NCBI GenBank assembly: GCA_964291405.2
Contig: OZ219926.1
Span: 1,952,001 to 2,016,000 of the forward strand
Origin: Thermodesulfobacteriota bacterium
Lineage (GTDB): Bacteria; Desulfobacterota; Binatia; Bin18
Direction of reading: 5' to 3'
DNA: 64,000 nt
In this document: piece by piece, positions 1-22,506 of the stretch
Layout: each line of letters opens with the position of its first letter
Position numbering within the stretch: position 1 is the stretch's first letter
Program-made: the position numbers and the translations under genes
The notes under the pieces: generated by a model
What the model was told of the DNA's origin: nothing
Database searches by the model: none
The model's input: the letters and a program-made list of their open reading frames with translations, nothing else

Positions 1-1613
1 AACCGGTTCAGGCTGCGGGCAAACCAGGGGAAGTCACTACTGGTTATACTCACCCGAATACAGTGACCGGGTAAAAAGACATAATGAGTGGGCCAGAGCT
101 CCACCGCAAACCGTGTCACCGCTCCGGGGACGAGGGGCGTGGGCCGTTGCAGCGACTCCCGGTACGAGGCGCGCAGACATCCCTGGCTGACCTTCATTGA
201 GCGGCCGTCGGGATACACATCGGTCAGCTTGACGTGCCACTCCGTGTCGTCACAATCGCTCGCAGCGAACAGGTCGATATGCGGCCAGCCCGAGACGATC
301 ACTTCTGCCTTCAAGATATCGCTGGTGTAGCAGATGACATCGAGCCGGGCTTCAACCGCGTCCTGATTGAGCGGAATATCCTCAAGCGGATATTGCTTGA
401 CGTCCATCTGGGTGGGGGCCGGGTCGTTCGGGTCATAGCGATAGGTCTGCGGAGGTTCATCAGATGGGGGAGACGTGGCGGACAGAGAGCCACGGGTTCC
501 ATCGAAGTGCAAATAGAGCGCCTGCTCCGTATCACTCAGCGGCCAACGGTCCGTCTCACGCCAGACGTTTCGTCCCGTTTCAAAAAGACGGACCGGCGGG
601 TCATTCCGAACGCCGTTGTCCCGGCCTTTGAGCCAGTGATCAAACCAACGTAAATGAACCTGATGCATATCCAGCGCCGCGTCCGGTCCGAAGTTCACCC
701 CTGCATACTGATCGTGCGGCCAGCGGCAGTTGACGTGACTCCACGGTCCGACGATCAGCTGTTGCCTGCTGCGGGCCGGAGAGGCCTGCATCATATGCTC
801 ATAGTGATGAAAGGCACCGGTCAGATCCTCCATATCAAACCAGCCCGTCACATGGAGACAGGGCACATCGATCTGATCGTAGCGCTCATCAAAACGCAGG
901 GCCTGCCAGTGCGCGTCCAGGGTGTCGTGCGTCAGCATGTCGTTCCAGGTTTCCCCAACCGGGTCGATATATTCACCAATGGCGGTCAGCGGCAGGCGGC
1001 GCAGGATATCGTCCCAGTCGTGGACTTCGAGCCCGTGGAATTCGGCAATCCGCCGCCGGACGAGATACACCCACCAGCCAAAATAAAGCTGGAACACGCC
1101 CCAGGTGTACGGAATTTCCTGTTGCCAACGGCCGGCCGCAGAGGTGGAGACCATACAGCTCAGATGCGGCGGCCGTTCCGCAGCCGCGGCCCACTGGGTC
1201 CAGCCCATATAGCTTAAGCCGGTCGTGCCGACCTTGCCGGTACACCACTCCTGGCGCGCCACCCACTCAATCACATCATGCGTATCCGGCCCGTCGTGCA
1301 CAAACGCTCGCCACTGGCCCTCGGATTTCCCCCGCCCGCGCACGTCGTGCACAACGACGGCATAGCCATGTTCCTGATAAAAACGCGCCTCGTCCAAAAA
1401 GAAGGCCGTGGTGCTCTTGTCGTAGGGCGTGGACTGGACGATCGCCGGCGCGGGCAGCTCAGCCTTACTTGGAAGGTAGACATCCGCGGCCAGCTCGACT
1501 CCGTCCCGCATCGGGATACCGGTTTCAAACACGGGTCGGTCTGTCGCTGCCGCCGCGCGGATGGGCTCCTCAAAATAGCGCTGGCGAGGCGTTTTGGTGG
1601 GCATGGCAGTCAT
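1..1613 (-). CDS. CocE/NonD family serine hydrolase (runs off the left edge; 3' end missing)
   Basis: Not in the ORF track because it has no stop in the window. Manual translation from ATG 1613 gives MTAMPTKTPR...IPMRDGVELAADVYLP...TPYDK...GYAVVVHDVRGRGKSEG...WCTGKVGTTGLSYMGWTQW, with the GxSYxG nucleophile motif. Confidence 0.9.
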   Translation of the reverse strand, partial: MTAMPTKTPRQRYFEEPIRAAAATDRPVFETGIPMRDGVELAADVYLPSKAELPAPAIVQSTPYDKSTTAFFLDEARFYQEHGYAVVVHDVRGRGKSEGQWRAFVHDGPDTHDVIEWVARQEWCTGKVGTTGLSYMGWTQWAAAAERPPHLSCMVSTSAAGRWQQEIPYTWGVFQLYFGWWVYLVRRRIAEFHGLEVHDWDDILRRLPLTAIGEYIDPVGETWNDMLTHDTLDAHWQALRFDERYDQIDVPCLHVTGWFDMEDLTGAFHHYEHMMQASPARSRQQLIVGPWSHVNCRWPHDQYAGVNFGPDAALDMHQVHLRWFDHWLKGRDNGVRNDPPVRLFETGRNVWRETDRWPLSDTEQALYLHFDGTRGSLSATSPPSDEPPQTYRYDPNDPAPTQMDVKQYPLEDIPLNQDAVEARLDVICYTSDILKAEVIVSGWPHIDLFAASDCDDTEWHVKLTDVYPDGRSMKVSQGCLRASYRESLQRPTPLVPGAVTRFAVELWPTHYVFLPGHCIRVSITSSDFPWFARSLNR

Positions 1614-1632: not shown

Positions 1633-2451
1633 TCAGTCCTGCTTCTGCGCCTGGACCGCTTCCTCGGCAGTCATGACCACCACGTCGCCCGGCCCGGCGC
1701 TGACCTCGCCGCCGTCGACCACATAGGTCATGCTGGTCGCAAACATCCCGGCCGGACTGGCTAGAAATAAGGCCAGACCGGCGATTTCGTTAGGCTCGCC
1801 CACTCGCTTCTGCGGGTTGATCGGAGAGCCGCTGGTCTCAACTGCCTCGACCAAATCCTTTGCCAAGTCGGTCCGGATCAACCCTGGGGCGATACAGGTC
1901 ACCCGAATTTTATCGGCCGCCCACTCCTTGCCCAAGAGCTGCGCCATATTGATGAGGGCCGCCTTGGACAGGGCATACGTGCCGATACCCATGGACGGCC
2001 GGACACCCTCATTTGAGGTGATGTTAATCACCGCGCCTCCGCCGCGTTGGCGCATGGATTCCCGACACAGACGCGCCAAATGTAGCGGCGCCCAGACATT
2101 GGTCCTCATCACCCTGAGGAAATCCTCTTCGTTTTCCTCGGCCAGGGTCACCAGGGAAACACCGGCGGCGTTATTGACCAGGATGTCGACACCGCCGAAC
2201 TCTTCGATCGTTGCCTGATACAGCTTGTCGCAGTCCGCACTGATCGACATGTCTGCCTGTACGGTCAAGACGCGGCGACCGGTTGCCGCGACATCCTGTT
2301 TGGCCCGCTCCAGGGCTTCCGGTCTGCGCGCGGCAAGCACGAGGTTCGCGCCGTGCTCGGCAAAGGCCAGCGCAATCGCCCGGCCGATACCTTTGGAGCC
2401 ACCGGTCACGATGGCGACTTTGTCGTCCAAAGAAAAATCAACGATACCCAT
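1633..2451 (-). CDS. Short-chain dehydrogenase/reductase
   Basis: TGGSKGIG, NNAA, YALSK, PGLIRT and VDGG motifs. Confidence 0.93.
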   Translation of the reverse strand: MGIVDFSLDDKVAIVTGGSKGIGRAIALAFAEHGANLVLAARRPEALERAKQDVAATGRRVLTVQADMSISADCDKLYQATIEEFGGVDILVNNAAGVSLVTLAEENEEDFLRVMRTNVWAPLHLARLCRESMRQRGGGAVINITSNEGVRPSMGIGTYALSKAALINMAQLLGKEWAADKIRVTCIAPGLIRTDLAKDLVEAVETSGSPINPQKRVGEPNEIAGLALFLASPAGMFATSMTYVVDGGEVSAGPGDVVVMTAEEAVQAQKQD

Positions 2452-2581
2452 ATGCTCCTCCTTTATGTTTAGCGCCTGCGTTCCTGTCTCTTACCACGAC
2501 TGAGGATAAGAGCTAAAGCGCTTTTCTCTTGACTCTGCTACCTGACGAAGACTAGCATCCGAGCAGAACAAAGGGGGCGGT

Positions 2582-3775
2582 ATGAATTTCGAGCTGACGA
2601 CCCAACACAAACGCATTCAGGCTCAGTGCCAGGAACTGGCGACAGACTTTGCCACCAGGGCGGCCGAGCACGACCGCGAGGCAACCAATCCGGTCGAGAA
2701 TTATGCTCTGCTGCGTGAGGCCGGGTTTCACACGCTCAATATCCCTACCGAGTTGGGCGGTTGGGGAGAAAAACTGTTCGGCCACTCGCTCGCCCTGGAA
2801 CAGCTTGCCCAGGGCTGCCCGGCCACGGCGCTGTCCTTCAATATGCATCTGGCCTGGGTCGGCTATCTCATGGAAAATATCGAGATTACATCTGACGTGA
2901 AGCAACGCGTGGCAGACTGGGTGGTACAGGGCAGTAATCTGGTTGCCGGTTCCACGTCCGAGGCGAGCACGTCGGCCCTGCTGGCGTCGTACGCTCCGGC
3001 CACCCAGGCAAGACAGGTCGACGGCGGCTATGTCATCAACGGCAAGAAATTTTTTTCGTCTATGGTTGGGGCGGCGGATTTCCGGGCCGTCCCGGCGCGT
3101 CGCGAGGACGCCACCACACCCGGCGCGGCCATCGTTTTTCTGGTTCCGCGGGAGGCTTCAGGGCAGACGGTGGAGGAAGTGTGGGATGTCCTGGGGATGC
3201 GCGGCACCCGGAGTGACTGCCTGCTCTTGGAAGACTGCTTTGTGCCCGAGGAATCGGTCGTGTTTGACACCGATAATTTCTTTCCTTCCATTGCTCGCGG
3301 GGCGAACTGGTTCTGGGCCTCGTATACGGCGGTCTATTTGGGGGTAGCCGCGGCGATCTACGCAGAAATCCTGAAGGTCGTTCAGGAGCGGGTGCCGAGG
3401 GGCTTTACCCAACCCATGGCCTATCATCCCGACGTGCGCCGAAAGGTTGCGGAGATGAACGCCGACCTCGAATCGGCACGGCTGAGCGTCTATCACTCGG
3501 CCTGGTTGAGCGATACCGAAGGCCCGACGCAGAACGCCATCGCGGCCCTCTATCGGGCCAAATATCTGGTCGGCGAAGCCACGGCGAACATTGGGCGCAG
3601 CGCCATGACTCTCGGCGGCGCGCACGCCTTGTTCAAGAGTTCGCCGCTGGAACGGCTATTCCGGGACGGCACGGTCGGGGCCATTCAGTTTCCGCCTAGC
3701 GATTTCTGTTTGGCGAGCCTCGGGTCGTTAGAGCTGGGTCTTGATCCGCATGAGATTCCACCGCCGATGAAGTAG
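2582..3775 (+). CDS. Acyl-CoA dehydrogenase-fold flavoprotein (possibly a DszC/SfnB-like monooxygenase)
   Basis: AAEHDRE, IPTELGG, NGKKFFSS, LGMRGTRS and LERLFRD motifs. Confidence 0.85.
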   Translation: MNFELTTQHKRIQAQCQELATDFATRAAEHDREATNPVENYALLREAGFHTLNIPTELGGWGEKLFGHSLALEQLAQGCPATALSFNMHLAWVGYLMENIEITSDVKQRVADWVVQGSNLVAGSTSEASTSALLASYAPATQARQVDGGYVINGKKFFSSMVGAADFRAVPARREDATTPGAAIVFLVPREASGQTVEEVWDVLGMRGTRSDCLLLEDCFVPEESVVFDTDNFFPSIARGANWFWASYTAVYLGVAAAIYAEILKVVQERVPRGFTQPMAYHPDVRRKVAEMNADLESARLSVYHSAWLSDTEGPTQNAIAALYRAKYLVGEATANIGRSAMTLGGAHALFKSSPLERLFRDGTVGAIQFPPSDFCLASLGSLELGLDPHEIPPPMK

Positions 3776-3788
3776 CTCTGCGGAGCAT

Positions 3789-4190
3789 CTACGACTCCGT
3801 TGGTGTTTCCCAGTATTCCTCGAAGAACGGATTGTCGATCAGTGTGCGCCAGGTGCCGTCAGGCTGGCGGCGCACGACATTGACGGCCCGGCCAGAGATG
3901 GTTTCTTGTGTACCGTCGGCTCTCGTGCGCTTCATGCTCCAGGGAATCCAGGACAGGGCGATATCTCCAGCCCGCACGACGTGTCTGACCTCGACCGAGA
4001 GCTCAGGATGCGCATCGGTAAACGTGCGCAAATGCTCGCGTAAAGCCTGCTCCCCCTGGACCGGAGCCTGTCCCGGTTCGGGTACGAACACCGTGTCCGA
4101 CTCATAGAGCGCCAGCATCGCGTCAATATCGCGGGCGTTCATCGCCTCAGGGAAGAGATCTTCTACTTCCTTGGGGGTGCGAGCCGGCAT
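3789..4190 (-). CDS. NTF2/SnoaL-like (YybH/DUF4440) protein
   Basis: MPARTPKEVEDLF..AMNARDIDAMLALYE..RRQPDGTWRTLIDNPF. Start moved to ATG 4190. Confidence 0.8.
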   Translation of the reverse strand: MPARTPKEVEDLFPEAMNARDIDAMLALYESDTVFVPEPGQAPVQGEQALREHLRTFTDAHPELSVEVRHVVRAGDIALSWIPWSMKRTRADGTQETISGRAVNVVRRQPDGTWRTLIDNPFFEEYWETPTES

Positions 4191-4213
4191 GGGGGTGCTT
4201 TCTCCGCGCTGCC

Positions 4214-4576
4214 TTACGGCCGGGCGCGGGTTTCTTCGGAACGGTCCGCGCGGGTCGGGTCGTATAAATCTCCAATGCTCGCGCCCAGCAGCCGGATGGG
4301 GCCGGTTGACGGGGTTTCGGCCCAGTGCAGCGTATTGGCCGGCAGGTCGAGCCGGTCGCCGGGTTTGAGGACCCACTTCTGGTCGCCGACGCCCATGGTG
4401 ATTTCACCCAGGACCGCAACCAGCACCTCGTCGTTCGGGTGGGTATGCGCCTCATAGGAATGGTTGGGTTCGTCGTCTTCGATATAGGCGGCCAGCCCTT
4501 CGGCCTCCATGGCACGAACCAGCTCTGACTGGGTCGGCGGTTCGGGCTTATTCCAACGGGTCACTTTGAGTTCCAT
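4214..4576 (-). CDS. Cupin domain protein
   Basis: HTHPNDE...LKPGDRLDLPANTLH cupin motifs. ATG 4576 follows an AGGAGG RBS. Confidence 0.85.
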   Translation of the reverse strand: MELKVTRWNKPEPPTQSELVRAMEAEGLAAYIEDDEPNHSYEAHTHPNDEVLVAVLGEITMGVGDQKWVLKPGDRLDLPANTLHWAETPSTGPIRLLGASIGDLYDPTRADRSEETRARP

Positions 4577-4760
4577 ATCGTCCCTCCTGCCAATACGCTT
4601 AGTCCCTGAGATTCTCCTGTAGCGCCAAAGGACGGACGGGTCAACGCAAAAATCGGCAGAATTCCTCGATTTCGATTGACAAAATTGCGCCCCCGGACGG
4701 ATAATGCGGGCACAACTGTTCTTTACCATAAGACAGGGCTTTCCATAAGGAGGGAATCGT

Positions 4761-10407: not shown

Positions 10408-10480
10408 GTAGGTCGGATTAGCGGAGCGTAATCCGACAAACCCAGGATGTCGGGTTACGCCTACGGCTAACCCGACCTAC
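10408..10480. repeat. GTAG-family REP pair (REPIN-like)
   Basis: GTAGGTCGGATTAGCGGAGCGTAATCCGACA ... TGTCGGGTTACGCCTACGGCTAACCCGACCTAC, inverted. Confidence 0.75.
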
Positions 10481-11526: not shown

Positions 11527-12876
11527 CTACGCGGCCTCCAACTCGGCCAACGCCTCGGCGTCGCTGACGGGCTCGGGCCTACCGTTGGCCAGGGGCCGCG
11601 AGCCGGGTTTTTTCTCAAACGGATCAACCAGCCCCAGCGTCTTGCCGTGCTCGCGCATGGCCGGAATGACGTCGCGGTTGATCAGCTCCAGACAGCGCAT
11701 CCGATCCTTGGCCGGGACCGGGCCGTCCAGCCAGAAAGAGAAGATGCCCGGACGCAGGATATCCTGGATTTTCTTGAGCTTCGGAATCACGTCGTCGGGC
11801 GTACCCGCGATCATGACCATGTCCTTGAGGACACCGGGATAGCTGTCGTAAATGGTCTTTTTGACGGCCTCGATCTCTTCGACCGTCGTTTCCCCGCCCT
11901 CACCGTACAGCGGTCCGGCAGAGGCATTGACGCCGAAGTTCGTCCGGGCCAGCCGGCGGGTCGCCGCCTTCGAGTTATAGCCCGGCGGGAACATCCACTC
12001 GGGCCGGGCAAAGTGGGCAAAGGCGCCACCGTACAGAATACGCTTACCCATTTCTTCCGCGCGCTCCTGGCTATCGGAGACCATGACCGGTTGCAGATAG
12101 CCGAAATTCTCCGGGCCGGCCTGATAGCCCTCACGGGCCGCGGCCTGGTTGTAGAAGTCCCACAGTTCCAGGGTGGGTTCGAGCCGGGTGGCGAGCGCCA
12201 CGTAGGGGTAACGGTTCTTGGCGCACCAGGACACGGTTTCCGGGCTGATGAGGCCGGGAATCCAGAACGGTGGATGGGGCTCCTGGACGGGTAGCACCCA
12301 GGGATTGACGTGCCGGAAGTGGAAGTGTTTGCCCTCATACCGGAACGGACCGGGCTTGGTCCACGACTGGACGATAAAGTCGATGCCCTCTTCAAAGTAT
12401 TCGCGATTAAAGGCCGGGTTGGCATTATTGGCAAGCTGTTCGCTGCCCGCGCCACGAACCCAGCCGGAGATCAGGCGGCCATTGGAGATCAGGTCGATCA
12501 TGGCCAGCTCTTCGGACAGCCGGAGGGCGTTCGAGACAGTGGGAACCGGGTTGCCGAGCAGAGCCATTTTGACCCGGCTGGTCGACTTGGCCAGGACCGA
12601 GGCTTCGACATCCATGACTGCGCCCAGGCAGAAGGGGTTGGCATGGTGCTCGTTGAGCATGATGCCGTCAAAGTTCATCAGCTCCTGGTCGGTGTAGATC
12701 TTCTCATCGAGATACTGGTTGAGCAGCCGCACGCCGTGCTTGCGGTCAAAAAAGCTGTTCGGCGTGCCGAAAAAGCTGCGTTTGCGAATGATCTCGTTTT
12801 CGAGGTCGCGGTATTGCTCAGGATGTTCCTCCGGGTCGTAGTGATACGCACGTTCCGTAAACCACATGAAATGCAT
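11527..12876 (-). CDS. Luciferase-like (LLM class) flavin-dependent oxidoreductase
   Basis: FDGIMLNEHH, EELAMIDLISNGRL and GTPDDV motifs. ATG 12876 follows AGGAGG. Confidence 0.9.
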   Translation of the reverse strand: MHFMWFTERAYHYDPEEHPEQYRDLENEIIRKRSFFGTPNSFFDRKHGVRLLNQYLDEKIYTDQELMNFDGIMLNEHHANPFCLGAVMDVEASVLAKSTSRVKMALLGNPVPTVSNALRLSEELAMIDLISNGRLISGWVRGAGSEQLANNANPAFNREYFEEGIDFIVQSWTKPGPFRYEGKHFHFRHVNPWVLPVQEPHPPFWIPGLISPETVSWCAKNRYPYVALATRLEPTLELWDFYNQAAAREGYQAGPENFGYLQPVMVSDSQERAEEMGKRILYGGAFAHFARPEWMFPPGYNSKAATRRLARTNFGVNASAGPLYGEGGETTVEEIEAVKKTIYDSYPGVLKDMVMIAGTPDDVIPKLKKIQDILRPGIFSFWLDGPVPAKDRMRCLELINRDVIPAMREHGKTLGLVDPFEKKPGSRPLANGRPEPVSDAEALAELEAA

Positions 12877-13078
12877 AGTCCGTCCTCCTACTGTGAAAAA
12901 ATTAGAAATATAAGAGACGGGCGGATGAGGCAAGAGGAAATCTGATCGGGTAGTGGTTCAGTTTGAAATCTTTTTCTTACGGGATTCCTTAGTTTAAGCC
13001 CCTGATTCTCGACCGTTCTTGACAACCTATTTTCTCTTCTGCATTTTTACGCCCATCTTGCATCGGAGAGGGAACTGC

Positions 13079-13477
13079 ATGAGAAGATGGAAATATCTCG
13101 GACTGATCGGACTCCTGCTTGTCCTGCACGGCTGTTCGGTCGGGATGGCCATGTCTGGACGGCCTGACCCGAATACCGGCGCATTGCGGGTCGGGCAGGC
13201 CCGCGATGAAGTCTTGTTACATTTGGGACAACCGACACAGACCTATGCTACGGAGACGGGCCGGACGGATACCTTGCATCTACAACGCGGGAACCAGCCC
13301 TCCACGGGCCGGGCGGTCGGCCATGCAGTCATGGATGTCTTGACACTAGGAGCCTGGGAGATCATTGGGACACCGGTGGAAGGATTTACAGGCGAAAAGT
13401 TCACGATCTCGGTCTCCTACGACAAAGAAGAGCGAGTCACAAAGATTGCGACCGCGCCAGGAGTTCCTGAATTTTAA
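13079..13477 (+). CDS. Putative lipoprotein
   Basis: MRRWKYLGLIGLLLVLHG-C signal peptide with lipobox. Confidence 0.75.
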   Translation: MRRWKYLGLIGLLLVLHGCSVGMAMSGRPDPNTGALRVGQARDEVLLHLGQPTQTYATETGRTDTLHLQRGNQPSTGRAVGHAVMDVLTLGAWEIIGTPVEGFTGEKFTISVSYDKEERVTKIATAPGVPEF

Positions 13478-13501
13478 CCTTACCCCTCATCAAATGGCAG
13501 A

Positions 13502-13626
13502 ATGAGCACGTTTGGCGACGATCTGATCCAGTCTCTTAATGAGGCCCTCGCCCACGCAAAGGGCAATGGTCCTGCCATTCTTCACACTGTTGTGACTCCG
13601 CGCGAGGTTCGGAAGCAAGCGAACCT
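13502..13626 (+). pseudogene. 5' half of a HigA/YiaG-type XRE HTH antitoxin
   Basis: MSTFGDDLIQSLNEALAHAKG...TPREVRKQANL, then homology is lost. The matching 3' half is at 18108-18299. Confidence 0.75.
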
Positions 13627-13754
13627 TCGGGTTCGACAAGTTCCGCCTGCTGCCAGAAGGTCTCGTCCAACTCGGGAATATCGCTGAAGTCGATGTCCTC
13701 ATCCTCCGTGGCCGCGATTTGTCGTGGGGTGAGGGGTTTATCGTATCCGCTCAT
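13627..13754 (-). pseudogene. N-terminal fragment of a BrnA-type antitoxin
   Basis: ...EDEDIDFSDIPELDETFWQQAELVEP, truncated where it meets the HTH fragment. Confidence 0.7.
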
Positions 13755-13770
13755 GGTAAGCCTGCCTTCG

Positions 13771-14007
13771 TCATCCGGCGTCATCTTTCCCGATCCACTC
13801 ACGGAGCGCCTGGTCAATCCGTGTCTGCCATCCACGACCACCGGCCTTGAAGTAATCGATCACGTCCTGCGACAGACGGATAGTCGTTGACACTGTCGGT
13901 TTGGCGACCGGCGGCCTGCCACGGCGGACGGTCGCCGTGGCGAACTTCTCCGGCCAGCCGTCCCCGGACAGGTCTGGTGCCGTATCCCGATCAAAATCTT
14001 GTGGCAT
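13771..14007 (-). CDS. brnA: BrnA antitoxin (orphan)
   Basis: RRGRPP..KPTVSTTIRLSQDVIDYFKAGGRGWQTRIDQALREW. Confidence 0.85.
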   Translation of the reverse strand: MPQDFDRDTAPDLSGDGWPEKFATATVRRGRPPVAKPTVSTTIRLSQDVIDYFKAGGRGWQTRIDQALREWIGKDDAG

Positions 14008-14331
14008 AGAGCGTTCATTCCGGTACTGGCTGAATTCGGTCACTCGGGCTCAAGCGCAGCCATTCGGGGTGATTTGAGTGGTGGCGTTTGAATGGGGGGA
14101 GTGGCTGCGTTTGGGTCGTGGGAGGGGGTGGGACGGATTCAACCTATCTTTTCCCAGTTCCCCACGGGATTGACGGAGACGGCCCAAACGAATAGGGTCT
14201 GCCCGCCAAAAATAGTATATAGATTTCCCTTCCATTCTGCACAAAGTAGGCGCTATTCCTTTAGGACCTCAACCATTTCTCTTTCCGTCATGGGCGCGCG
14301 GGCGGTCGTCCAACCGCCCGCGCGCTGGTCG

Positions 14332-16944
14332 TTATTCAACATCCACAATCTGGAAGTTCTGCGAAGCTTGGTGCCATTGCAGAATGACCGTGGTGCCCGG
14401 TTCAGGAAAATCCTCCACCCGCACCCGTTCACTCTCCACGTCCTCCAGAAACTCCTCATCAGAAATACGGATCACTTCCATGAGGTTCGTGTCCGGGGTG
14501 AAGGTTCCATCATCGGCTTCCCAGCCGATTTGCTGGCGGCCCACAAAAGCCCGGACGTTATAGAGACCCGCGTCCAAATGATTCAAATTGAAGGTACCGC
14601 CAAAGCCAAAACCGTGGTCCGGTTTCGGGTTACATTCCTCGGCGCGTGTCACATCGGCGCGTGGCGAGCCATAGGGCACGATGAACGCGGGAACCGCCAG
14701 ACGGTTGCGGCGTTGGTCACGAATCTCGATCCGTACGCCATTGCCATCATCCTGACAGACCCACCCGCGCACCATCACCACCCCACTGCGGATGTCGTCG
14801 TGGCCGGGTTCTTCCAAGACGCCGTGGGGGTCGGGGTCGATTTCGGTATCGGTGTCCGTGTCGGTGTCCGTAACCGGCGGTCGGGTCGTGGGCTCCTCGA
14901 CGGTGACATCCTCGGCAAAGTTGGCGGTCAGATCATAGCTCCCTTCCGTCGTGCCGGTTTGTCCCTCGACTTCCAGCAGATAAAGGCCAGGGGTCACATT
15001 GGCCGCAATGCGGAAATTGTTGTCGGACCCGCCATTATCATTCAATTGGATAGGAGTACCGTCTGGTCCATACAGCGTGGCCTTCACGTCGATCCCACCG
15101 GTACTCTGAAGATATAGCGCCCCTGCGGAGGTGACCTCGAACAGATACCGATTGCGGTCTTTTTCGGCGTTGGTACCTTGAGGGTCGATGGTTTGCCCCG
15201 TCAGAATACGTGTCGGCTGGACACTGGTATCAGTCCCGTCCACGACGGCATCGAAACGGAAACTGATCCCGTAGCTCCCATCTTTAGTGCTGGTCACGTG
15301 GACCAAATGCGGCATGTCCGCTTGTACGGGCACAGCAAACCGGAAATGGGGTGTGCGCGTATCTGTCGCAATCTGGCCGCGTGCCCCATAGAGCGCTCCT
15401 TGTGTTTGGGCAATCGGCGTTGTGGCACCATCTACCCCTCTGACGGTTAGCCAGCCAGCCTTGCCGGGTGTAAAGACAAATACGTCCTGATCCGCTTGAT
15501 TATTGTCTTCAGACCGACGTGCAATCGACAACTCCGTGTCATCATCCAGGACGGTTCCAGTCCAAGCGGGCGCAGGCTCGACCGTCACATCGGTGATTCC
15601 AGCAGTAAACATGGCAACTGCGAATGCCACATCCAGGGTGTAACGACCAGTGATATGGTCTTCTTGGCCCGCGACTCGCAGGGTATAGGCGGTATCCTGT
15701 TGCAATATTGGTACGGCCATTACGAAATTGCCGCTCGTGCCTCCGTCCTCCGCCACGATATTCATGCGATTAGCGACAGGACCCGTTGCTCCGACAAGCG
15801 TCCCTTTTGTATCCGTTTGGCCTGTGGTCTTCAGGGTCAGCAGTCCGGGGGCGGTGACGGTCAGACTATGGGAGACCACGGCTCCCCGGCTGCTGATGTC
15901 GCCCTGTCGGCCCGGCAGGGCGTCCGAGAGGACTCCATGGAACTGAACAACCAAATCGGGGGCGGGTAAGTTTGGATTCCCGTCGATGTTGGGCCGGAGG
16001 GAATTCAGCGTCGGTGTATCTGGGTCCGATTGGACGGTCACAAGAATATACTCGCCTTCCCCGGAGTTAACTGTGGCCCGAAGTTCTAAGCCTTCATGAG
16101 GGTCTTCGCTGATTGCTTCCGCTACCAAAGTAGCCGCTGCCTCTGCCAACCAGCCAGCCACCCCCGTTCCACCGTCACGGTTCGAGTTGATGGTTCCCAG
16201 GTCGCTGATTTCCATATCCGGGGTATTGTCCTTGGCGTTAGTGGAAGAAGTCGTCCCTTGGCCCTTAACCGTTTCCGCGTTTGTCTGCATGGTCCCCGCA
16301 AGTCCCCTTCTGTCGGCGGGAGCAGTTGCCCGTTCCCCCCTATCAGCACTCTCCAGGGCTTTTGAGGCGTTATCGAGGGCCGTGGCAGCCGTCCGCAACG
16401 CTGTGCGGGCATTGTCCTCGGCCTGGCTGGGATTTGGATTCGTCGTCCTATCTCTGAGGGCCGCAGCATCTGTCGCCGCCTTGACGGCAGCATCAGCTGC
16501 GTCAAAGGCTTTCTTCGCCGCACTTTCCTCGGCGATATGGTCGGACGTATAGGTCGTTTTGTAGCGAGCGCGTTCACTGGAACCGTAGCACAGCACCGCA
16601 TCGACCGGTGCCCCATCAGTGGAAAATACCCGCAATTCTCCCGCAGCTAACTGCGGGACGGTAATCTTGGTGTAGCGATAACGTGTGTTTCCCTCCCCAC
16701 TCTCCCCTGTGCCTCGTTTGCTTTCATCATCATCAGTATTCAGCATGGGGGTGATCGTGGCCACGCCCGATCCTGGGGTAATTGCAAAAGTCGCCTCTGG
16801 TGCACTGGCGGTGCCAAAAAAGTCGTTATCCGGCAGCCCTCTACACCCCGGCAGCGCCTGCGTATGCGCCCACACATGTCCACTCAACCCGAGCCACAGG
16901 ACGCCCCCCACGACTCCACCGATGATCTGCTGGTATTTCCTCAT
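14332..16944 (-). CDS. Large secreted/surface protein (870 aa) with PPC-like beta-sandwich repeats
   Basis: ATG 16944 follows GAGGAGG. Signal peptide MRKYQQIIGG..HVWA, Ala-rich insert, repeats of the LxSTGxxDxxGTLYGPDG..NDNGGSDNNFRI type, TDTDTDT linker and a C-terminal beta domain. Confidence 0.8.
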   Translation of the reverse strand: MRKYQQIIGGVVGGVLWLGLSGHVWAHTQALPGCRGLPDNDFFGTASAPEATFAITPGSGVATITPMLNTDDDESKRGTGESGEGNTRYRYTKITVPQLAAGELRVFSTDGAPVDAVLCYGSSERARYKTTYTSDHIAEESAAKKAFDAADAAVKAATDAAALRDRTTNPNPSQAEDNARTALRTAATALDNASKALESADRGERATAPADRRGLAGTMQTNAETVKGQGTTSSTNAKDNTPDMEISDLGTINSNRDGGTGVAGWLAEAAATLVAEAISEDPHEGLELRATVNSGEGEYILVTVQSDPDTPTLNSLRPNIDGNPNLPAPDLVVQFHGVLSDALPGRQGDISSRGAVVSHSLTVTAPGLLTLKTTGQTDTKGTLVGATGPVANRMNIVAEDGGTSGNFVMAVPILQQDTAYTLRVAGQEDHITGRYTLDVAFAVAMFTAGITDVTVEPAPAWTGTVLDDDTELSIARRSEDNNQADQDVFVFTPGKAGWLTVRGVDGATTPIAQTQGALYGARGQIATDTRTPHFRFAVPVQADMPHLVHVTSTKDGSYGISFRFDAVVDGTDTSVQPTRILTGQTIDPQGTNAEKDRNRYLFEVTSAGALYLQSTGGIDVKATLYGPDGTPIQLNDNGGSDNNFRIAANVTPGLYLLEVEGQTGTTEGSYDLTANFAEDVTVEEPTTRPPVTDTDTDTDTEIDPDPHGVLEEPGHDDIRSGVVMVRGWVCQDDGNGVRIEIRDQRRNRLAVPAFIVPYGSPRADVTRAEECNPKPDHGFGFGGTFNLNHLDAGLYNVRAFVGRQQIGWEADDGTFTPDTNLMEVIRISDEEFLEDVESERVRVEDFPEPGTTVILQWHQASQNFQIVDVE

Positions 16945-17654
16945 GCCGTCCTCCTCTCGCGTCCGTTTTGTTTGCCTTGCCCTGCCTTGCCTGGCCCTGT
17001 TTCGCCATGCCATGCCCCTGCCGCGCCTTGCCTCGCCCCGCCCCGCCCAGAACCGTTGACTGGTGCAATACTCACCAGCGCAAACCGGCCAAAATCTCCG
17101 GACTTCTCCGGCCGCCAATCCCCGAGCCCGATGCGGCGCCCCGCGATGGTCAGCCACTGTTCCAGTTGAGAGGCGTCTACTAACTCGTCGTCCGCCTCTA
17201 CCACAAACGTCACGCCCCACTCGTCAAACTTGGCGCGCGTGCGCGGAATGCGGTTACGTTGAATGACCACATTGGTAGTGAACTGCACGGTCTTGCCCAG
17301 TTCTTCCATTGTGGTCCCGAGGGTGCGGTCATAGGAGAATTCTTCAATCTCCTCGACCAACAAGCCTTCTCTCACCTGCGGCCCCTGCTTGAGCTTGCGG
17401 GCCGCCGTCTCGATGCATGAGCGCAGCGCTGCGGCGGGGATTGTCGGGATGCCGCTCTTATCGAGCCACAGGCTCGTCTGACACTCCAATTCCTGCAACC
17501 GCTCCTCATCATGAATGGTGCGATCACGGCCGCGCCTCTTGGCAATCTCGTCCTTCTCCTTGTTGGCCGGGGAGCGTTTGTCGAGGCCCGCTTGACTATT
17601 GTGCATAATCAGCGGTCGCCGGCCGTCCAGACATATCCGGTAACGCTGCATCAT
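16941..17654 (-). CDS. Solo Cas7/RAMP-like protein
   Basis: N-terminal strand YRICLDGRRPLIMHN, PTIPAAALRSCIETAA (like the RAMP PxIPxSSxKG motif) and C-terminal Gly-rich loop IGLGDWRPEKSGDFGRF. RBS AGAGGAG. The CDS is confident; the fold is inferred. Confidence 0.7.
   Translation of the reverse strand: MMQRYRICLDGRRPLIMHNSQAGLDKRSPANKEKDEIAKRRGRDRTIHDEERLQELECQTSLWLDKSGIPTIPAAALRSCIETAARKLKQGPQVREGLLVEEIEEFSYDRTLGTTMEELGKTVQFTTNVVIQRNRIPRTRAKFDEWGVTFVVEADDELVDASQLEQWLTIAGRRIGLGDWRPEKSGDFGRFALVSIAPVNGSGRGGARQGAAGAWHGETGPGKAGQGKQNGRERRTA
16972..17047 (-). repeat. Phased (GGC-NN) pentamer array, 14 units; candidate guide RNA
   Basis: Minus strand reads GGC-GG GGC-GG GGC-GA GGC-AA GGC-GC GGC-AG (G) GGC-AT GGC-AT GGC-GA AAC-AG GGC-CA GGC-AA GGC-AG GGC-AA GGC-AA. 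Confidence 0.85.
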
Positions 17655-17914
17655 CCGCGTCTCCTCTTCACGTCGAGAGTCCCGGCGGGGTGCCGGGCCG
17701 TGTCAACTGCACAACCGTGAGGTAATGTCTCACTTTGAAGCTTATGACCAGAAAAAATGGGGCAGTCCGCCCTCTCCCCAGCTCCCTCTCAGGCATCGTG
17801 TTCTCCTCTCGGCTTCGAGCCCACGCGTTCGTCCGCTGATGACGAATGTTTATGTTCTCTTTTACAATGTCTTATAGATATAGTTTTGCTTATAAATCAC
17901 GTCTGGAAGACGCT

Positions 17915-17944
17915 ATACTATTACTGATAAAGATATATTGTCAA
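17915..17944 (-). promoter_or_regulatory. Putative sigma70 promoter for the Cas7-like/secreted-protein operon
   Basis: TTGACA-18 nt-TAGTAT on the minus strand within an AT-rich stretch (about 17845-17950). Confidence 0.5.
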
Positions 17945-18107
17945 TAAACTATCCCCATCAGACTGTTCGCCTAACATAGTGGTCTATCCATACTGGTCTT
18001 GAACCGCGAGGCGGGTATGAATGACCGAGAGCTGTTAGGGGGTGTCGTCAGTTAAGGAGGATCACCGAAGCGGCGAGGTAAATGGCGCCGAGGAAGCTGC
18101 TGGCGCG

Positions 18108-18299
18108 TTTACCCCACGCGAGGTTCGGAAGCAGGCGAACCTGACGCAAGCTCAGATGGCACCACTGATGGGCATGAGCCTGTCCGGCTACCGGAAATGG
18201 GAACAGGGGACACGGCGGGTCAGCGGCCCGGCCGCTACCCTGCTGCGTGTGCTCGAAAGGGAGCCGGAGGCGGTCAAGCGTGCATTGCTTGGCTCATAA
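18108..18299 (+). pseudogene. 3' half of a HigA/YiaG-type XRE HTH antitoxin
   Basis: TPREVRKQANLTQAQMAPLMGMSLSGYRKWEQGTRRVSGPAATLLRVLEREPEAVKRAL, lacking its native N-terminus. It could be expressed from GTG 18042. Confidence 0.75.
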
Positions 18300-18384
18300 G
18301 GACGGCTGACCGGGACCATCTGATACAAAACCGGGATATAAATCCTCATTATGAGAAGAGGCCATAGTAGCTATTACAGCTCTC

Positions 18385-18636
18385 ATGAAAGAAATGGCTG
18401 CCAGGGACGCCAAGAACCGCTTTAGCTATTTGCTGGATGCCGTGCAGAGGGCGCCCGTGCGTGTGACCAGGAAAGGCAGAGCGGTCGGCGTGATGATGTC
18501 GGTGCAACACTATGAGCGCCTTCGCGGCGCTGCCTGGGAACGTCTGACGATGACGATGGACGCTTTGGGAGAGGAGGCATCCGCGAGCGGCTTGACGGAG
18601 GCCAAGCTCAAGGCGCTTCTCGCGGATAAGAACTGA
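18385..18636 (+). CDS. Phd/YefM family antitoxin (orphan)
   Basis: AARDAKNRFSYLLDAVQRAPVRVTRKGRAVGV. Confidence 0.88.
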   Translation: MKEMAARDAKNRFSYLLDAVQRAPVRVTRKGRAVGVMMSVQHYERLRGAAWERLTMTMDALGEEASASGLTEAKLKALLADKN

Positions 18637-18657
18637 GACTATCGTTCCCGACACCAA

Positions 18658-18693
18658 TTAGTCCACAATACGTACCTCGTGCCCGCTGCATAC
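18658..18693 (-). repeat. Duplicate of the 3' end of the EthD gene (direct repeat with 19493-19528)
   Basis: CCACAATACG(T/C)ACCTCGTGCCCGCTGCATAC at 18663-18693 and 19498-19528, encoding VCSGHEVRIVD* vs VCSGHEVRIVG*. Confidence 0.85.
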
Positions 18694-18761
18694 GCCTGTA
18701 AGGTCATTGTCCCACAAGGCACTACGGTCTATTGTAGCCGTAGTGGTTCACCTTGAGGGAT

Positions 18762-19007
18762 ATGATGCACGAGGTTCAATTACGCGACGCAAAGGCTAGA
18801 CTCTCAGCGCTGGTAGAAGGTGCGGCCCATGGAGAGACGACGATCATCACTCGCTACGGCAAACCTCGGGCCGTCATCCTTGGAATCGATGAGTGGAATC
18901 GTCTCTGCAAAGTGCCGTCCTTTGGCCGATTGCTGCTCTCTGCACCACTGGAGGACGGGGACCTGCCGCCGCGTGACATGAGCCCGTCACGGGACGCGGC
19001 ACTCTAG
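18762..19007 (+). CDS. Phd/YefM family antitoxin (VapB role)
   Basis: VQLRDAKARLSALVEGAAHGETTIITRYGKPRAV, upstream of a PIN toxin. Confidence 0.88.
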   Translation: MMHEVQLRDAKARLSALVEGAAHGETTIITRYGKPRAVILGIDEWNRLCKVPSFGRLLLSAPLEDGDLPPRDMSPSRDAAL

Positions 19008-19016
19008 GAACGATTC

Positions 19017-19457
19017 TTGTACCTGGTCGATACCAATGTACTGTCGGTTGGGGCTCCCGGCCGGGTGGGTCGGTCCACGACATTGATCGACTGGATGGAG
19101 ACGCATTCGAGCAGGCTTTTCCTGTCGGTCGTCACCGTGGCCGAGATTGCCGACGGGGTGGCCAAGCTGAAACGGACCAGGTCCGCCGCCAGGGCTGCTG
19201 CCATTGAGGACTGGCTCCAACTTGTGCTCCGTCTCTATGGCAGTCGCGTGCTGGCATTTGATGCTGCCGCAGCCCGGCTGGCGGGGGAACTGACAGATAA
19301 GGCGCGAGCGGCGGGTCATGCTCCTGGCTTTGCCGATATCGCCATCGCGGCTACAGCCGAAAGCCATGGCCTGACGATCCTGACGCGCAACCTGCGCCAC
19401 TTTATGCCGCTCGGCGTCCCGGCAACCGATCCCTTTGCTGGATTACCCCGCTCCTGA
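19017..19457 (+). CDS. vapC: VapC PIN-domain toxin
   Basis: YLVDTNVLS, SVVTVAEI, DIAIAATA and LTRNLRHF motifs. Confidence 0.92.
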   Translation: MYLVDTNVLSVGAPGRVGRSTTLIDWMETHSSRLFLSVVTVAEIADGVAKLKRTRSAARAAAIEDWLQLVLRLYGSRVLAFDAAAARLAGELTDKARAAGHAPGFADIAIAATAESHGLTILTRNLRHFMPLGVPATDPFAGLPRS

Positions 19458-19492
19458 CAACAAGCAGGACCATCTCATATTACTGAGGGCCA

Positions 19493-20161
19493 TCAGCCCA
19501 CAATACGCACCTCGTGCCCGCTGCATACCAGCATGGGCTCGACCAGCTCGCCGAAACCGTCCGGCTCATAGCCCTGGATGTCGGCGAAGGTGGCGTTGGG
19601 GTGATCGATGCAGATTTGCGCCACACCGTCGTAGGCGCGCTCTCGCTTAGCATCGTCCAGGGCAACCAGGTCCACGGAATAACGCACCGCGTCCGGCGTA
19701 TTATTGATGGCCGCGACAACGTTCGGCACATGGACGTTCAGCCAGTAGTCGTCCAGATGGGCGCGCTCAATGCCCTGGCGTCGCTTGATAAAGAAGACGA
19801 GCTTGGTGGTGTCGCGGGTCGTCGGCCCGTCAACGTTGAGATGCTCGGTCACAAACAGATTGCAGCCCGGCTGTATGGTGGCATAGGTGCTGAATTTGTC
19901 GGCGTCGATATTGGGTGGGGCCTGCTGGCCGATCGTAGTCTCAAAATGTTCCCTGTCCCGGAACCACAACTCGGCCATACCGTCCGGCGGACGGCTGTCC
20001 GCATCGGCACCGTCCGAGGGCGGATCAAAGAAGGTGATGCGATAGCGTTCCGGCTTGACCAGCGAAACAACGTGCGGGGCGTGCACATGCTCCCAGACGT
20101 GCACCAACTCGTCATGCGAAACATGCTCCAGACGCCGAACAGCGCCCATAAACTTTAACAT
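19493..20161 (-). CDS. Two-domain EthD family protein
   Basis: Two W..VH.P helices and DGMAELWF / YDGVAQI motifs. ATG 20161 follows AGGAGG. Confidence 0.8.
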   Translation of the reverse strand: MLKFMGAVRRLEHVSHDELVHVWEHVHAPHVVSLVKPERYRITFFDPPSDGADADSRPPDGMAELWFRDREHFETTIGQQAPPNIDADKFSTYATIQPGCNLFVTEHLNVDGPTTRDTTKLVFFIKRRQGIERAHLDDYWLNVHVPNVVAAINNTPDAVRYSVDLVALDDAKRERAYDGVAQICIDHPNATFADIQGYEPDGFGELVEPMLVCSGHEVRIVG

Positions 20162-20171
20162 GGGTTCCTCC

Positions 20172-21026
20172 TTAGAAGCGTGCCTGGGGTACGGGCAGCC
20201 CAGGGATATCCGAACGCGTCCGAAAGACGCTGCCCTTGAGCTCGCGTTGATCGTTGTTGGCGGTGACCACGTACAGGTCCGACATGTCGGGCCCGCCAAA
20301 GGCCACGCTGGTGACCGTTTTGGCCGGCACCTTAATGCGTTGATCGACCGTGCCGTCCGGCTTGAAGCGTACGATTTCACCCCGCCCGGCCACCGTGGCG
20401 ACCCACACTCCGCCTTCGACATCAACGGTCATGCCGTCGGGCATGCCCTCGGGGAGCTGCGCGAACAGTTGGCGGTCACTGACCGTGCGGTCGGCCCGCA
20501 CCTCATAGGCCCAGACGGCCTTGGTGGTGGAATCACAGTGGTAGAGCAGCTTGCGGTCCGGACTGAAGCCCAGGCCGTTGGTCACCTCGACCCCCTCCCA
20601 GAGGTGCGTCACCTGGCCCGGCGGGTCAATGCGGAAGAGCGAGCCCGGTGGCGGCGTACTCTTGAAATCAAAGGTATGAATATCGCAGCCAAACGAACCG
20701 ACCCAGATACTGCCCTGGTCATCCATGGTGAGGTCGTTCAGGCCGAACAGCGGCTTTCCCTGCCATTCGGCAAAGATATCCCGCAGCGCGCCGGACTGCT
20801 CATCCCAGTGCGCCAGAGACAGACCCGTCACCAGGATGCCGCCGCCCGCGTTCAAGGCGATGCCGCCAACAAACTTCCGATCCGCTATTAAGGTTTCAAT
20901 CTCGCCGTTGGGGCTGCGCCGGAAGACACCGCCGCCGCGCACATCGCTGTAATAGAGCCGATTCTGCTCATCGGTCCGTGGCCCCTCAACGAGTCCGTAG
21001 CCGCTGGCCAAGGTTTCGAATTCCAT
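20172..21026 (-). CDS. SMP-30/gluconolactonase/LRE family protein
   Basis: EGP, LNDLTMD, NGLGFSPD, PDGMTVDVEG and FGGPDMSDLYV motifs. Confidence 0.92.
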   Translation of the reverse strand: MEFETLASGYGLVEGPRTDEQNRLYYSDVRGGGVFRRSPNGEIETLIADRKFVGGIALNAGGGILVTGLSLAHWDEQSGALRDIFAEWQGKPLFGLNDLTMDDQGSIWVGSFGCDIHTFDFKSTPPPGSLFRIDPPGQVTHLWEGVEVTNGLGFSPDRKLLYHCDSTTKAVWAYEVRADRTVSDRQLFAQLPEGMPDGMTVDVEGGVWVATVAGRGEIVRFKPDGTVDQRIKVPAKTVTSVAFGGPDMSDLYVVTANNDQRELKGSVFRTRSDIPGLPVPQARF

Positions 21027-21183
21027 ACGCTCCCTCCTTGTGTGTGGCCGCCCTCGTGAACAGCCGCCTGATGGGGCGAGGGTAATAGCTCCGAGGACGG
21101 AAGACAATGGGCGGGCGGCCACAGACAAAGCCGCCGACTTTGTATAAGGTGCGCCTCTACATCTGTCATCACGACACTATCCG

Positions 21184-22506
21184 ATGCGGCAAAAAGAATT
21201 TCCCTTTTATTATGGTTGGGCGGTGGTGGCCGTGGCCTTTATTACGCTGGCCATTGGCGTGAACACGCGCACGACCTTTTCCTTGTTGTTTCCGCCCATT
21301 CTGGAGGAATTCGGTTGGGACCGGGGCAGTACGGCCGCGGCCTTTTCTTGCGGTTTTCTGGCGGCAACCGTGTACGCTCCCATGGTCGGTATGCTCATGG
21401 ATCGCTGGGGACCGCGCCTGGTTATCCCGCTGGGTGCGGTGCTGGTCAGCAGCGGCATGGTGGCGATTACCCTGGTTTCTCAGCCGTGGCACCTGTATCT
21501 CACCTTCGGCATCCTGGTTGGTGGCGCGAGTACCTCCATCAGCTATCTCGGTCACTCCCTGTTTTTACCCTACTGGTTTGTACGGCGCCGTGGCCTGGCC
21601 CTGGGGATTGCCTTTTCCGGGGTGGGTGTCGGTTCCATTCTGCTCTTTCCGTGGATCCAAAGCATTATTGACCAGGCCGGCTGGCGTGAGGCGTGTTGGG
21701 TGGTGGCTGGGACCCTGATAGTGATCGTGTTTCCGTTGAACGTGATCCTGCAACGCCGGCGGCCCGAGGACCTCGGCTTGGCACCCGACGGAGACCACGC
21801 CCCGCACGCTGCTCACGGTGCGCAGCGCCCGGCTGACAATATCGTGGACCACGCCTGGGCCGCAACGGATTGGACCCTGGCCCGCGCCATACGCACCTCC
21901 CGTTTCTGGTGGCTGGGCGCCGCTTTCTTCAGCAGTCTGTACGCCTGGTACGCCATCCAGGTGCATCAAACCAAATACCTGACCGATAGCGGCTTTTCAT
22001 CCGAGGCGGCGGCCTTTGCCCTGGGCTTGGTTGGACTGACCTCCTGTGGCGGTCAGATTGGGCTGGGCCTGCTCTCCGACCGAATCGGACGTGAATGGGT
22101 CTGGACTATCAGCATGATGGGTTTTGTCCTGTGCTACGTCATCCTGCTCGGCATGCCTGAGCAGCCCAGTCTGGTGCTGTTATACGCCATGGTCGCGGCC
22201 CAGGGCGTATTGGGCTACGGGACTGTCTCGGTGTTCGGAGCCATCCCAGCCGAGATTTTTCAGGGCAAACAGTACGGCCGCATCTACGGCACGCTGACCA
22301 TTGCCGGCAGTCTGGGCGGCGGGACCGGGCCCTGGGTGACCGGTCTGCTCTTTGACCGCACCGGGAGTTATACGGTTGCCTTCTGGATTGCGCTGGCGTT
22401 TGCCTTTATCTCCATTGGCAGCATGTGGATGGCCGGTCCGCGCAAGGTGCGTGTGGTGGCCGGTCAGGTGAAGCATCTGGCCGCGCGGCGGGCTCTGGCG
22501 GAATAG
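21184..22506 (+). CDS. MFS transporter (MCT/OFA-like)
   Basis: About 12 hydrophobic segments; GMLMDRWGPR and GLLSDRIGR motif A. Confidence 0.93.
   Translation: MRQKEFPFYYGWAVVAVAFITLAIGVNTRTTFSLLFPPILEEFGWDRGSTAAAFSCGFLAATVYAPMVGMLMDRWGPRLVIPLGAVLVSSGMVAITLVSQPWHLYLTFGILVGGASTSISYLGHSLFLPYWFVRRRGLALGIAFSGVGVGSILLFPWIQSIIDQAGWREACWVVAGTLIVIVFPLNVILQRRRPEDLGLAPDGDHAPHAAHGAQRPADNIVDHAWAATDWTLARAIRTSRFWWLGAAFFSSLYAWYAIQVHQTKYLTDSGFSSEAAAFALGLVGLTSCGGQIGLGLLSDRIGREWVWTISMMGFVLCYVILLGMPEQPSLVLLYAMVAAQGVLGYGTVSVFGAIPAEIFQGKQYGRIYGTLTIAGSLGGGTGPWVTGLLFDRTGSYTVAFWIALAFAFISIGSMWMAGPRKVRVVAGQVKHLAARRALAE

Follow-up and report, generated by a model that had tools for sequence, protein, structure and literature searches.

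VIPR (Viral Interference Programmable Repeat) systems have been described in four preprints of 2026, the first of which is bioRxiv 10.64898/2026.04.26.720920. Their protein, Vipr, polymerizes with one protomer per YNNGG unit of a guide RNA (vrRNA). The GGY bases are sequestered and the NN bases read DNA, with one base skipped per unit, and binding silences transcription (10.64898/2026.04.26.720920 and 10.64898/2026.04.26.720927). In the Vipr protein of Escherichia phage SUSP1, H17 and D177 hold G1, R138 and W178 hold G2 and R179 holds Y3 (10.64898/2026.04.26.720927). Experimental work has dealt with enterobacterial and Pseudomonas phage systems, and two later preprints (10.64898/2026.10.15.759431 and 10.64898/2026.10.21.760802) have extended the description. 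Here we describe a locus that is very probably a VIPR locus in a bacterial chromosome, consisting of a gene for a Vipr protein (vipr) and a 76-nt GGY/NN array as guide (vrRNA). It lies in a 64,000-nt stretch of the genome of a Thermodesulfobacteriota bacterium (assembly GCA_964291405.2, contig OZ219926.1, positions 1,952,001-2,016,000), which is called the window; unless stated otherwise, coordinates are those of the window.

The first preprint (10.64898/2026.04.26.720920) treats a set of 667 systems, divided into types I-VII, and places 70.8% of the loci in viral or proviral sequence and 25.5% of 664 loci in cellular sequence. Arrays were called by the criterion of at least four YNNGG units and range from 9 to 16 units, and internal degeneracy and staggered vrRNAs are both mentioned. 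The loci "typically" have a vap gene, and an invariant structured 3' tail is described for type II only. Compared with the type II systems of phage SUSP1 and a Pseudomonas fulva prophage, the window locus is alike in the full-length homology of the protein, in the identity of the GGY-contact residues, in having a YNNGG array on the same strand as the gene, and in lacking cas genes, CRISPR repeats and a self-target. In the type II exemplars one vrRNA lies upstream and three lie downstream of the gene, whereas here one compound array directly follows it. The locus is situated in a chromosomal island and not in a phage, its open reading frame (ORF) stays open through the array, and neither a vap gene nor a conserved 3' tail was detected. 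The guide of the window subclade is conserved among relatives, whereas the NN positions of type II vrRNAs are hypervariable (10.64898/2026.04.26.720920).

The vipr gene encodes a predicted minimal RAMP protein

The gene is present in a single copy in the genome and is labelled "hypothetical protein" in public records. Its 237-aa ORF (16941-17654, minus strand) was verified, as were the three RAMP-like motifs which a preliminary description of the stretch, made from the letters alone, had quoted from it; all three are present in the order given there. The G-loop motif reads GLGDWRP. The part of the ORF that corresponds to the protein family is the following.

17064-17654, minus strand: core coding region of vipr, residues 1-197, with an RRM core, an alpha-helical bundle, a thumb and a glycine-rich loop (from the 36pp_D and phrog_4652 matches and the AF2 model).

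When the single ORF was compared with the PDB sequences using phmmer, the sole real match was 36pp_D, "SUSP1 Vipr protein" (E = 1.7e-11, 47 bits), with residues 5-194 aligned to residues 4-188 of 202. Pairwise identity to SUSP1 Vipr is thus low, and related phage Vipr genes show approximately 26% identity. A profile made from 88 relatives (alignment A1) matched the same chain over its full length (E = 1.2e-50, profile positions 2-192 against residues 2-190 of the 202-residue chain), and no other PDB sequence matched this profile up to an E value of 1. Among the PHROGs the protein matched phrog_4652 (function unknown, E = 1.5e-29). Pfam, NCBIfam and PADLOC gave no match, and no Cas family was found. 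The family comprises 904 proteins in 90% clusters and 2890 representatives at 50% identity, both at E values not exceeding 1e-3; most of 120 homologues listed among the 904 are 196-204 aa long.

An AF2 model computed from the single sequence was unusable (pLDDT 35.3) and was replaced by a model based on alignment A1, which had a pLDDT of 97.7 and a pTM of 0.91. The best Foldseek matches of this model were Csm3 of type III-A complexes, Cmr4 and type VII Cas7 (E values from 2e-5 to 5e-4, probability 1.00, TM approximately 0.5). The PDB copy searched by Foldseek ends on 2026-04-08 and predates the Vipr entries, none of which was among the matches. VIA-align, which does not depend on Foldseek, gave similar results: Csm3 (9g9a_D) was aligned over 148 residues with a Z score of 11.1 and an rmsd of 3.2, Cmr4 (6s6b_I) had a Z score of 10.9 and the Cas7 domain of gRAMP (8d9g_B) a Z score of 10.6. 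Z scores of at least 8 were obtained for 27 chains, almost exclusively RAMPs. These matches to Csm3, Cmr4 and Cas7 indicate the RAMP fold independently of the sequence match to Vipr.

The comparison with Cas7-group RAMPs (Csm3, Cmr4, the Cas7 domains of gRAMP/Cas7-11, and type VII Cas7) revealed a shared RRM core, thumb and glycine-rich loop, with Z scores of 9-11 to the Csm3, Cmr4 and gRAMP domains. Both groups would place one protomer on each fixed step of RNA, which for the window protein is predicted from homology. The step itself differs, being 5 nt with three bases sequestered in Vipr and 6 nt with one base flipped in Cas7 (10.64898/2026.04.26.720927). The window protein differs from this group also in having no sequence match to any Cas family, and the locus in having no partner subunits, CRISPR repeats or adaptation genes.

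In the pairwise alignment with 36pp_D, the residues corresponding to the five GGY-contact residues of SUSP1 (H17, R138, D177, W178 and R179) are identical: H18, R140, D179, W180 and R181. In the 88-sequence alignment A1, R140 is invariant, and D179 and R181 are conserved in at least 90% of the sequences. The DNA-clamp residues R39, K82 and G87 of SUSP1 align with R41, R86 and G91 of the window protein, and for K33, E71/M72 and K88 there is no conserved counterpart. Judged from its sequence matches, ORF 16941-17654(-) is assigned as the gene of a Vipr protein, a predicted minimal RAMP. The Cas7/RAMP fold proposed in the preliminary description was borne out by the AF2 model, Foldseek and VIA-align, the fold being of the Cas7/Csm3 kind. 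That description had also mentioned a report on VIPR: the report exists (bioRxiv 10.64898/2026.04.26.720920), and the window protein is a homologue, at the level of sequence, of the solved SUSP1 Vipr.

A YNNGG array follows the core of the gene

Two further features occupy the 3' part of the ORF.

16975-17050, minus strand: vrRNA-type array of YNNGG (GGY/NN) units (from TRF, the unit scan, the genome-wide count of runs and conservation in loci L002-L005).

16941-17063, minus strand: part of the ORF that reads through the array, residues 198-237 (from the lengths of homologues, the stop codon before the array in L002 and L005, and the terminal TGA, which forms an ATGA overlap with the start codon of the next gene).

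The array is on the same strand as vipr and begins 14 nt past the end of the protein core. On the gene strand (17050 to 16975, 76 nt) it reads CTGGGCGGGGCGGGGCGAGGCAAGGCGCGGCAGGGGCATGGCATGGCGAAACAGGGCCAGGCAAGGCAGGGCAAGG. TRF detected a period-5 tract of 13 copies at the 3' end of the ORF (16972-17037). Block A (17050-17016) consists of seven units and is followed by an extra G at 17015 and by block B (17014-16975), whose eight units include the degenerate CGAAA. The array has a total of 14 canonical in-phase YNNGG units, a number that lies above the calling criterion of the first preprint and within its range. In the 4.95-Mb genome there are three runs of at least five in-phase YNNGG units and two of them belong to this array, whereas five shuffles of 1 Mb contained no such run. 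The array therefore cannot be attributed to chance.

The 237-aa ORF extends beyond the protein family, its last approximately 40 residues being read through from the array. Compared with L002, approximately 19 nt including the stop codon are absent from the window and from L003, and as a result the ORF stays open for 40 codons through the array and ends in the ATGA overlap. The read-through form is not confined to this genome, since one 90%-identity cluster contains 15 such sequences, 224-237 aa long, and in addition one sequence of 611 aa. For annotators the locus is a warning, as public records call the gene "hypothetical protein" and the ORF call can swallow the guide array.

In all five arrays of the subclade a 6-nt unit or a degenerate GGY is retained at unit 6/7. 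This irregularity could reflect internal degeneracy, or else two staggered vrRNAs could join there. The conserved core of the array amounts to approximately 11 units, and the window and L003 have four to five more. A hairpin follows the array in L002 and L005, and there is none in the window. The Rfam search gave merely a sub-threshold snoRNA-like match at the start of vipr (E = 0.1), and no hammerhead or other ribozyme near the array.

Arrays accompany vipr in related loci

Thirteen related loci were collected: five from species genomes, two usable loci from a sample of the phylum and six from metagenomes. The metagenome loci were found with a closer alignment (A2), and this search yielded no viral contig. 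With a scanner set to at least three perfect in-phase units and at least four units overall, an array was detected beside the homologue and on the same strand in 12 of the 13 loci. In the thirteenth (L012), inspection by eye showed a degenerate array immediately past the stop codon. L002, L005 and L006 have the array past the stop codon and L009 has it upstream of the gene, which indicates that the tract is a nucleic-acid element and not a coding tail.

Two phage genes found by tblastn, Mycobacterium phage LittleE gp34 (32% identity) and Citrobacter phage Mijalis gp044 (26%), matched over approximately 81-84% of the query. Both are annotated "hypothetical protein", and like vipr of the window both are flanked by YNNGG arrays on the same strand. 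In the two phages the arrays stand on both sides of a unit formed by vipr and a small second gene, whereas the window has one array and no small second gene. The preliminary description had suggested testing whether GGY-NN arrays follow the homologues, and had proposed that the adjacent pentamer array is the RNA partner of the protein. Such arrays precede or follow the gene in the 12 loci and are present in the two phages. Of the proposal, the association of array and gene stood; that the protein binds the array RNA is a prediction drawn from the same association and from homology with SUSP1 Vipr.

These data bear on the possibility that the protein is an orphan CRISPR Cas7, and that the pentamer tract is merely a Gly/Ala/Arg-rich coding tail without any RNA element. 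In favour of this possibility are the fold matches, which were best to Csm3 and Cmr4 in the older PDB library, the position of the tract within the ORF in this genome, and the Cas1 homologues encoded elsewhere in the genome. However, the protein shows direct sequence homology to Vipr and no Cas family match, the tract has a period of 5 and not of 3, and in L002, L005, L006 and other loci it lies past the stop codon, and in L009 upstream of the gene. An orphan Cas7 with a coding tail was rejected, being contradicted by the Vipr matches and by the arrays outside the ORF in relatives, and we give this explanation almost no credence. The preliminary description was correct on the fold, the predicted partner RNA and the identity of the system, which gives the VIPR family a new chromosomal representative.

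The homologue of L011, whose Vipr is 70% identical, adjoins a gene for the large subunit of a phage terminase. This gene (L011:93-2642, plus strand) lies directly upstream of the vipr homologue and contains LAGLIDADG/homing-endonuclease (intein-like) domains. In L013 the vipr relative is located near a TnpB-type transposase gene, and a relative of 69% identity is a "hypothetical protein" of an alphaproteobacterial metagenome-assembled genome. The linkage of relatives to phage, transposase and alphaproteobacterial sequences indicates that the clade moves between phages and the chromosomes of different phyla. A search of 201 genomes sampled from the phylum detected vipr in 4 and did not detect it in the one genome of the same genus.

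Some related loci have peculiarities of their own. In L009, 12 successive YNNGG arrays (3-1276, plus strand) precede a distant Vipr homologue. Most of these arrays end in a common motif of approximately 20 nt which finishes in two CAAGG units and is likely to be a conserved 3' handle of that clade. In L006 a 717-aa open frame (2444-4597, plus strand) runs into the vipr homologue without a stop codon, and may be a fusion or just a stop-free upstream frame; two long arrays follow, with a GC-rich hairpin between them.

Protein and guide are both conserved

Between the window and L002 the protein is 82% identical and the coding DNA 77%, and 85 of 197 third codon positions (43%) agree, so that synonymous sites are near saturation. 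In contrast to these sites, block A of the array is identical at 34 of 35 positions. Five-way alignment showed conservation of the array core alone, with no alignment of the spacer that precedes it or of the sequence that follows. The ratio of amino acid to third-position identity argues that the protein is under purifying selection. The near-invariance of block A, seen against the third codon positions and the unaligned flanks, argues that constraint acts on the protein and also on the guide, NN positions included. Such constraint on the guide predicts a conserved target.

Searches for targets of the guide

For target searches the guide was converted as in the first preprint by replacing each GGY with one wildcard, i.e. 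with a 1-nt skip. In the genome itself the best matches with this pattern were 13/14, 13/16 and 21/30, which is equal to or below the controls with shuffled units. Skips of 0 and 2 were equal to the controls, and a skip of 3 found the array only. A 15-unit pattern with up to three mismatches had no match in any of 401 genomes of the phylum. In IMG/VR four long patterns, searched by exact matching only, had no match, and a 16-base AT-rich sub-pattern had more than 115 scattered matches, which were taken as chance. Similarly, none of 22 guides from related loci had a match exceeding the controls, either in this genome or in the other related loci. As no match to the guide beyond that of the controls was found in the host genome, the target is probably a foreign element; the lack of a self-target agrees with the first preprint (10.64898/2026.04.26.720920).

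Predicted mode of action and points that weigh against it

By analogy with the described systems, the locus would work as follows. The array would be transcribed, most likely as the 3' part of the vipr message, and processed. One Vipr protomer would then bind each five-base unit, as predicted from homology with the solved SUSP1 complex, and the GGY bases would be sequestered through His18, Arg140, Asp179, Trp180 and Arg181. The NN pairs would be presented to read double-stranded DNA, one base being skipped per unit, and the resulting filament would block transcription of the target, which is probably a foreign element.

Several observations weigh against the interpretation of the locus as a working VIPR system. 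The ORF is open through the array in this genome, so ribosomes could cross the guide. The array contains one 6-nt unit and one unit, CGAAA, without GG, and a continuous filament in a single register is therefore not assured. The array RNA shows no structure beyond that of shuffled sequences (fold z = -0.29). No 3' tail or pseudoknot was detected, and the sequence past the array is not conserved in the five loci of the subclade. On the same strand no vap-like small gene for a DNA-binding protein follows vipr. The target searches in the genome itself, in the 401 genomes of the phylum and, with exact patterns, in IMG/VR were all negative. One RNA library, available as assembled contigs, yielded no more than short contigs, located at 17670-17850 and within the bin 17040-17176, for which carry-over of DNA is possible; contigs, the form in which the sequencing runs were used, give no transcript ends, strand or expression level.

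Part of these observations could be accounted for if the locus were the inactive, decaying remnant of a VIPR cassette of a mobile element that has lost the accessory gene, the tail and the stop codon. Besides the missing vap gene and tail, the ORF running through the array and the degenerate and 6-nt units, this would fit the mosaic island, which contains gene remnants and repeated intergenic modules, and the sparse distribution of vipr in the phylum (4 of 201 genomes, not found in the genome of the same genus). Decay is difficult to reconcile with purifying selection as judged from 82% amino acid identity against 43% identity at third codon positions, with the intactness of all five GGY-contact residues, with an array conserved well above its flanks in five of five loci, or with the persistence of the read-through form in a cluster of 15 sequences. 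We consider a remnant very improbable. As a VIPR locus, the one described here adds a clear chromosomal member from a lineage not yet in culture, whose RNA-contact residues are intact and whose structure is modelled with very high confidence, and it provides an example of vipr and one array, without a vap-like gene or recognizable tail, kept under what the substitution pattern indicates is purifying selection. The novelty is modest, since the family, including its mechanism and cellular members, has already been described.

The locus is part of a chromosomal island

The surroundings of vipr form a variable region.

12890-21199, no strand assigned: variable island of approximately 8.3 kb with vipr, the array, the gene of an 870-aa protein, BrnA, HTH, two Phd genes, PIN, EthD and SGL.

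In a genome of the same genus (G110) the luciferase-like gene (11531-12889 in the window) and the MFS gene (21199-22493 in the window) are 158 bp apart, which defines the segment from approximately 12890 to 21199 as an island absent from the congener. It is rich in toxin-antitoxin genes (BrnA, HTH, two Phd antitoxins and a PIN toxin). A Pfam scan of nearly all of the 63 ORFs of the window revealed no phage, integrase or cas family, TRF showed no CRISPR-like repeat in the 64 kb, and no tRNA gene was found there. The viral or proviral location of most published loci is therefore not shared by this one, which lies in a chromosomal island without any phage family in 64 kb. The preliminary description had called the protein cellular and solo, without CRISPR array or cas genes: the cellular location was confirmed by the island, and the second statement is true for the window by the Pfam scans and TRF. 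Elsewhere in the genome, 0.8 and 2.8 Mb away, there are two Cas1-family matches over the Pfam cut-off (G000:C3:2764026-2764724 and 4806313-4806972), which suggest that the organism probably has CRISPR-Cas besides VIPR.

Many of the sequencing runs that contain this stretch are labelled "sponge metagenome". Taking the habitat label as a lead only, the host is probably a sponge-associated symbiont, and a guide conserved across diverged hosts would predict a conserved target in that habitat.

An 870-aa protein gene is linked to vipr

Immediately downstream of vipr lies a long gene.

14332-16944, minus strand: gene of an 870-aa protein whose N-terminus resembles a signal peptide and which belongs to no known family; the gene may or may not be part of the system.

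The protein had no match in Pfam, NCBIfam, PADLOC or the PDB sequences. Its Atlas scores were below 0.9 and gave PPC or glycan-binding domains as leads only. The gene overlaps vipr by ATGA. Orthologues adjoin vipr downstream in L003 and L004 and upstream, on the same strand, in L002, and the adjacency with common orientation holds for four of the four subclade loci that have enough flanking sequence. Between the window and L003 the 870-aa protein is 45% identical, compared with 95-99% for the products of the flanking genes. Contigs of other populations swap the body of the gene between conserved ends (joints at 14364 and at 16843/16849), and there are approximately 30 paralogues of the protein in the genome. 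The linkage with vipr is real but may be inherited, and the gene was not counted as a vap.

With this linkage a domesticated VIPR with a fixed guide has to be considered (the preliminary description had called the example possibly domesticated), in which an unchanging vrRNA would control a cellular or island-borne function, possibly tied to the 870-aa protein, rather than serve in phage defence. It would explain why the guide is near-invariant (34 of 35 positions in block A) while synonymous sites are near saturation (85 of 197 third positions), and it fits the chromosomal location without phage genes in 64 kb, the ATGA overlap, and the 870-aa gene being adjacent and co-oriented in four of four loci despite the flipped order in L002. 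Domestication of this kind is nevertheless improbable. No site in the host genome beats the shuffled controls at skips of 0, 1 or 2, and a skip of 3 returned nothing apart from the array. Because the four loci are relatives, inheritance could account for the adjacency without any functional tie. The 870-aa protein seems to be secreted, and hence not related to DNA. If the guide were aimed at a mobile element, at a coding sequence conserved there, its conservation would be equally expected, as is reported for SUSP1 (10.64898/2026.10.15.759431). We retain the interpretation as a VIPR locus directed, probably, at a foreign element.

A more far-reaching proposal, which we consider unlikely, is that the subclade represents VIPR settled in cellular chromosomes and reduced to one protein and one fixed guide without vap or tail, operonically tied to a hypervariable secreted protein and acting as a hard-wired silencer of one conserved target. 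If true, such a module of RNA-guided immunity or regulation would be innate and non-adaptive, and would stand between phage VIPR and cellular CRISPR.

The region upstream of vipr and minor features of the island

A promoter-like site precedes the gene.

17915-17944, minus strand: sigma-70-like promoter match upstream of vipr, by consensus only (TTGACA, 16-nt spacer, AATAGT; 10 of 12 positions).

The site sits within a repeated intergenic module. Between it and the start of vipr there is a terminator-like hairpin with a T run (17760-17772, minus strand), which from its sequence could be a leader, an attenuator or the end of a short RNA. The intergenic region consists of two repeated modules. 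The first (17721-17814) has three other copies in the genome. The second (17812-18039) has two, at C3 4325531-4325748 and 4330821-4331028, each with an HTH-type or RelE-like gene next to it. At its end, near 18020, the window copy has the truncated start of an XRE-type gene.

The divergent HTH gene (18042-18299) is antitoxin-like, of the toxin-antitoxin kind, and is common only to the syntenic locus L003. Its segment 18111-18290 (plus strand) is covered very deeply by many variant contigs in all four sequencing runs, and the gene seems to be one of an antitoxin-type family that in these communities is multi-copy or widely shared. The PIN toxin gene (19017-19457, plus strand), which follows the second Phd gene, has no counterpart in L003, where EthD directly follows Phd. 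Outside the island, a repeat of approximately 75 nt at 10408-10480 gave 21 blastn matches in the genome itself (self included) and is present in dozens of copies in G110. In this it resembles elements of the REP or MITE type.

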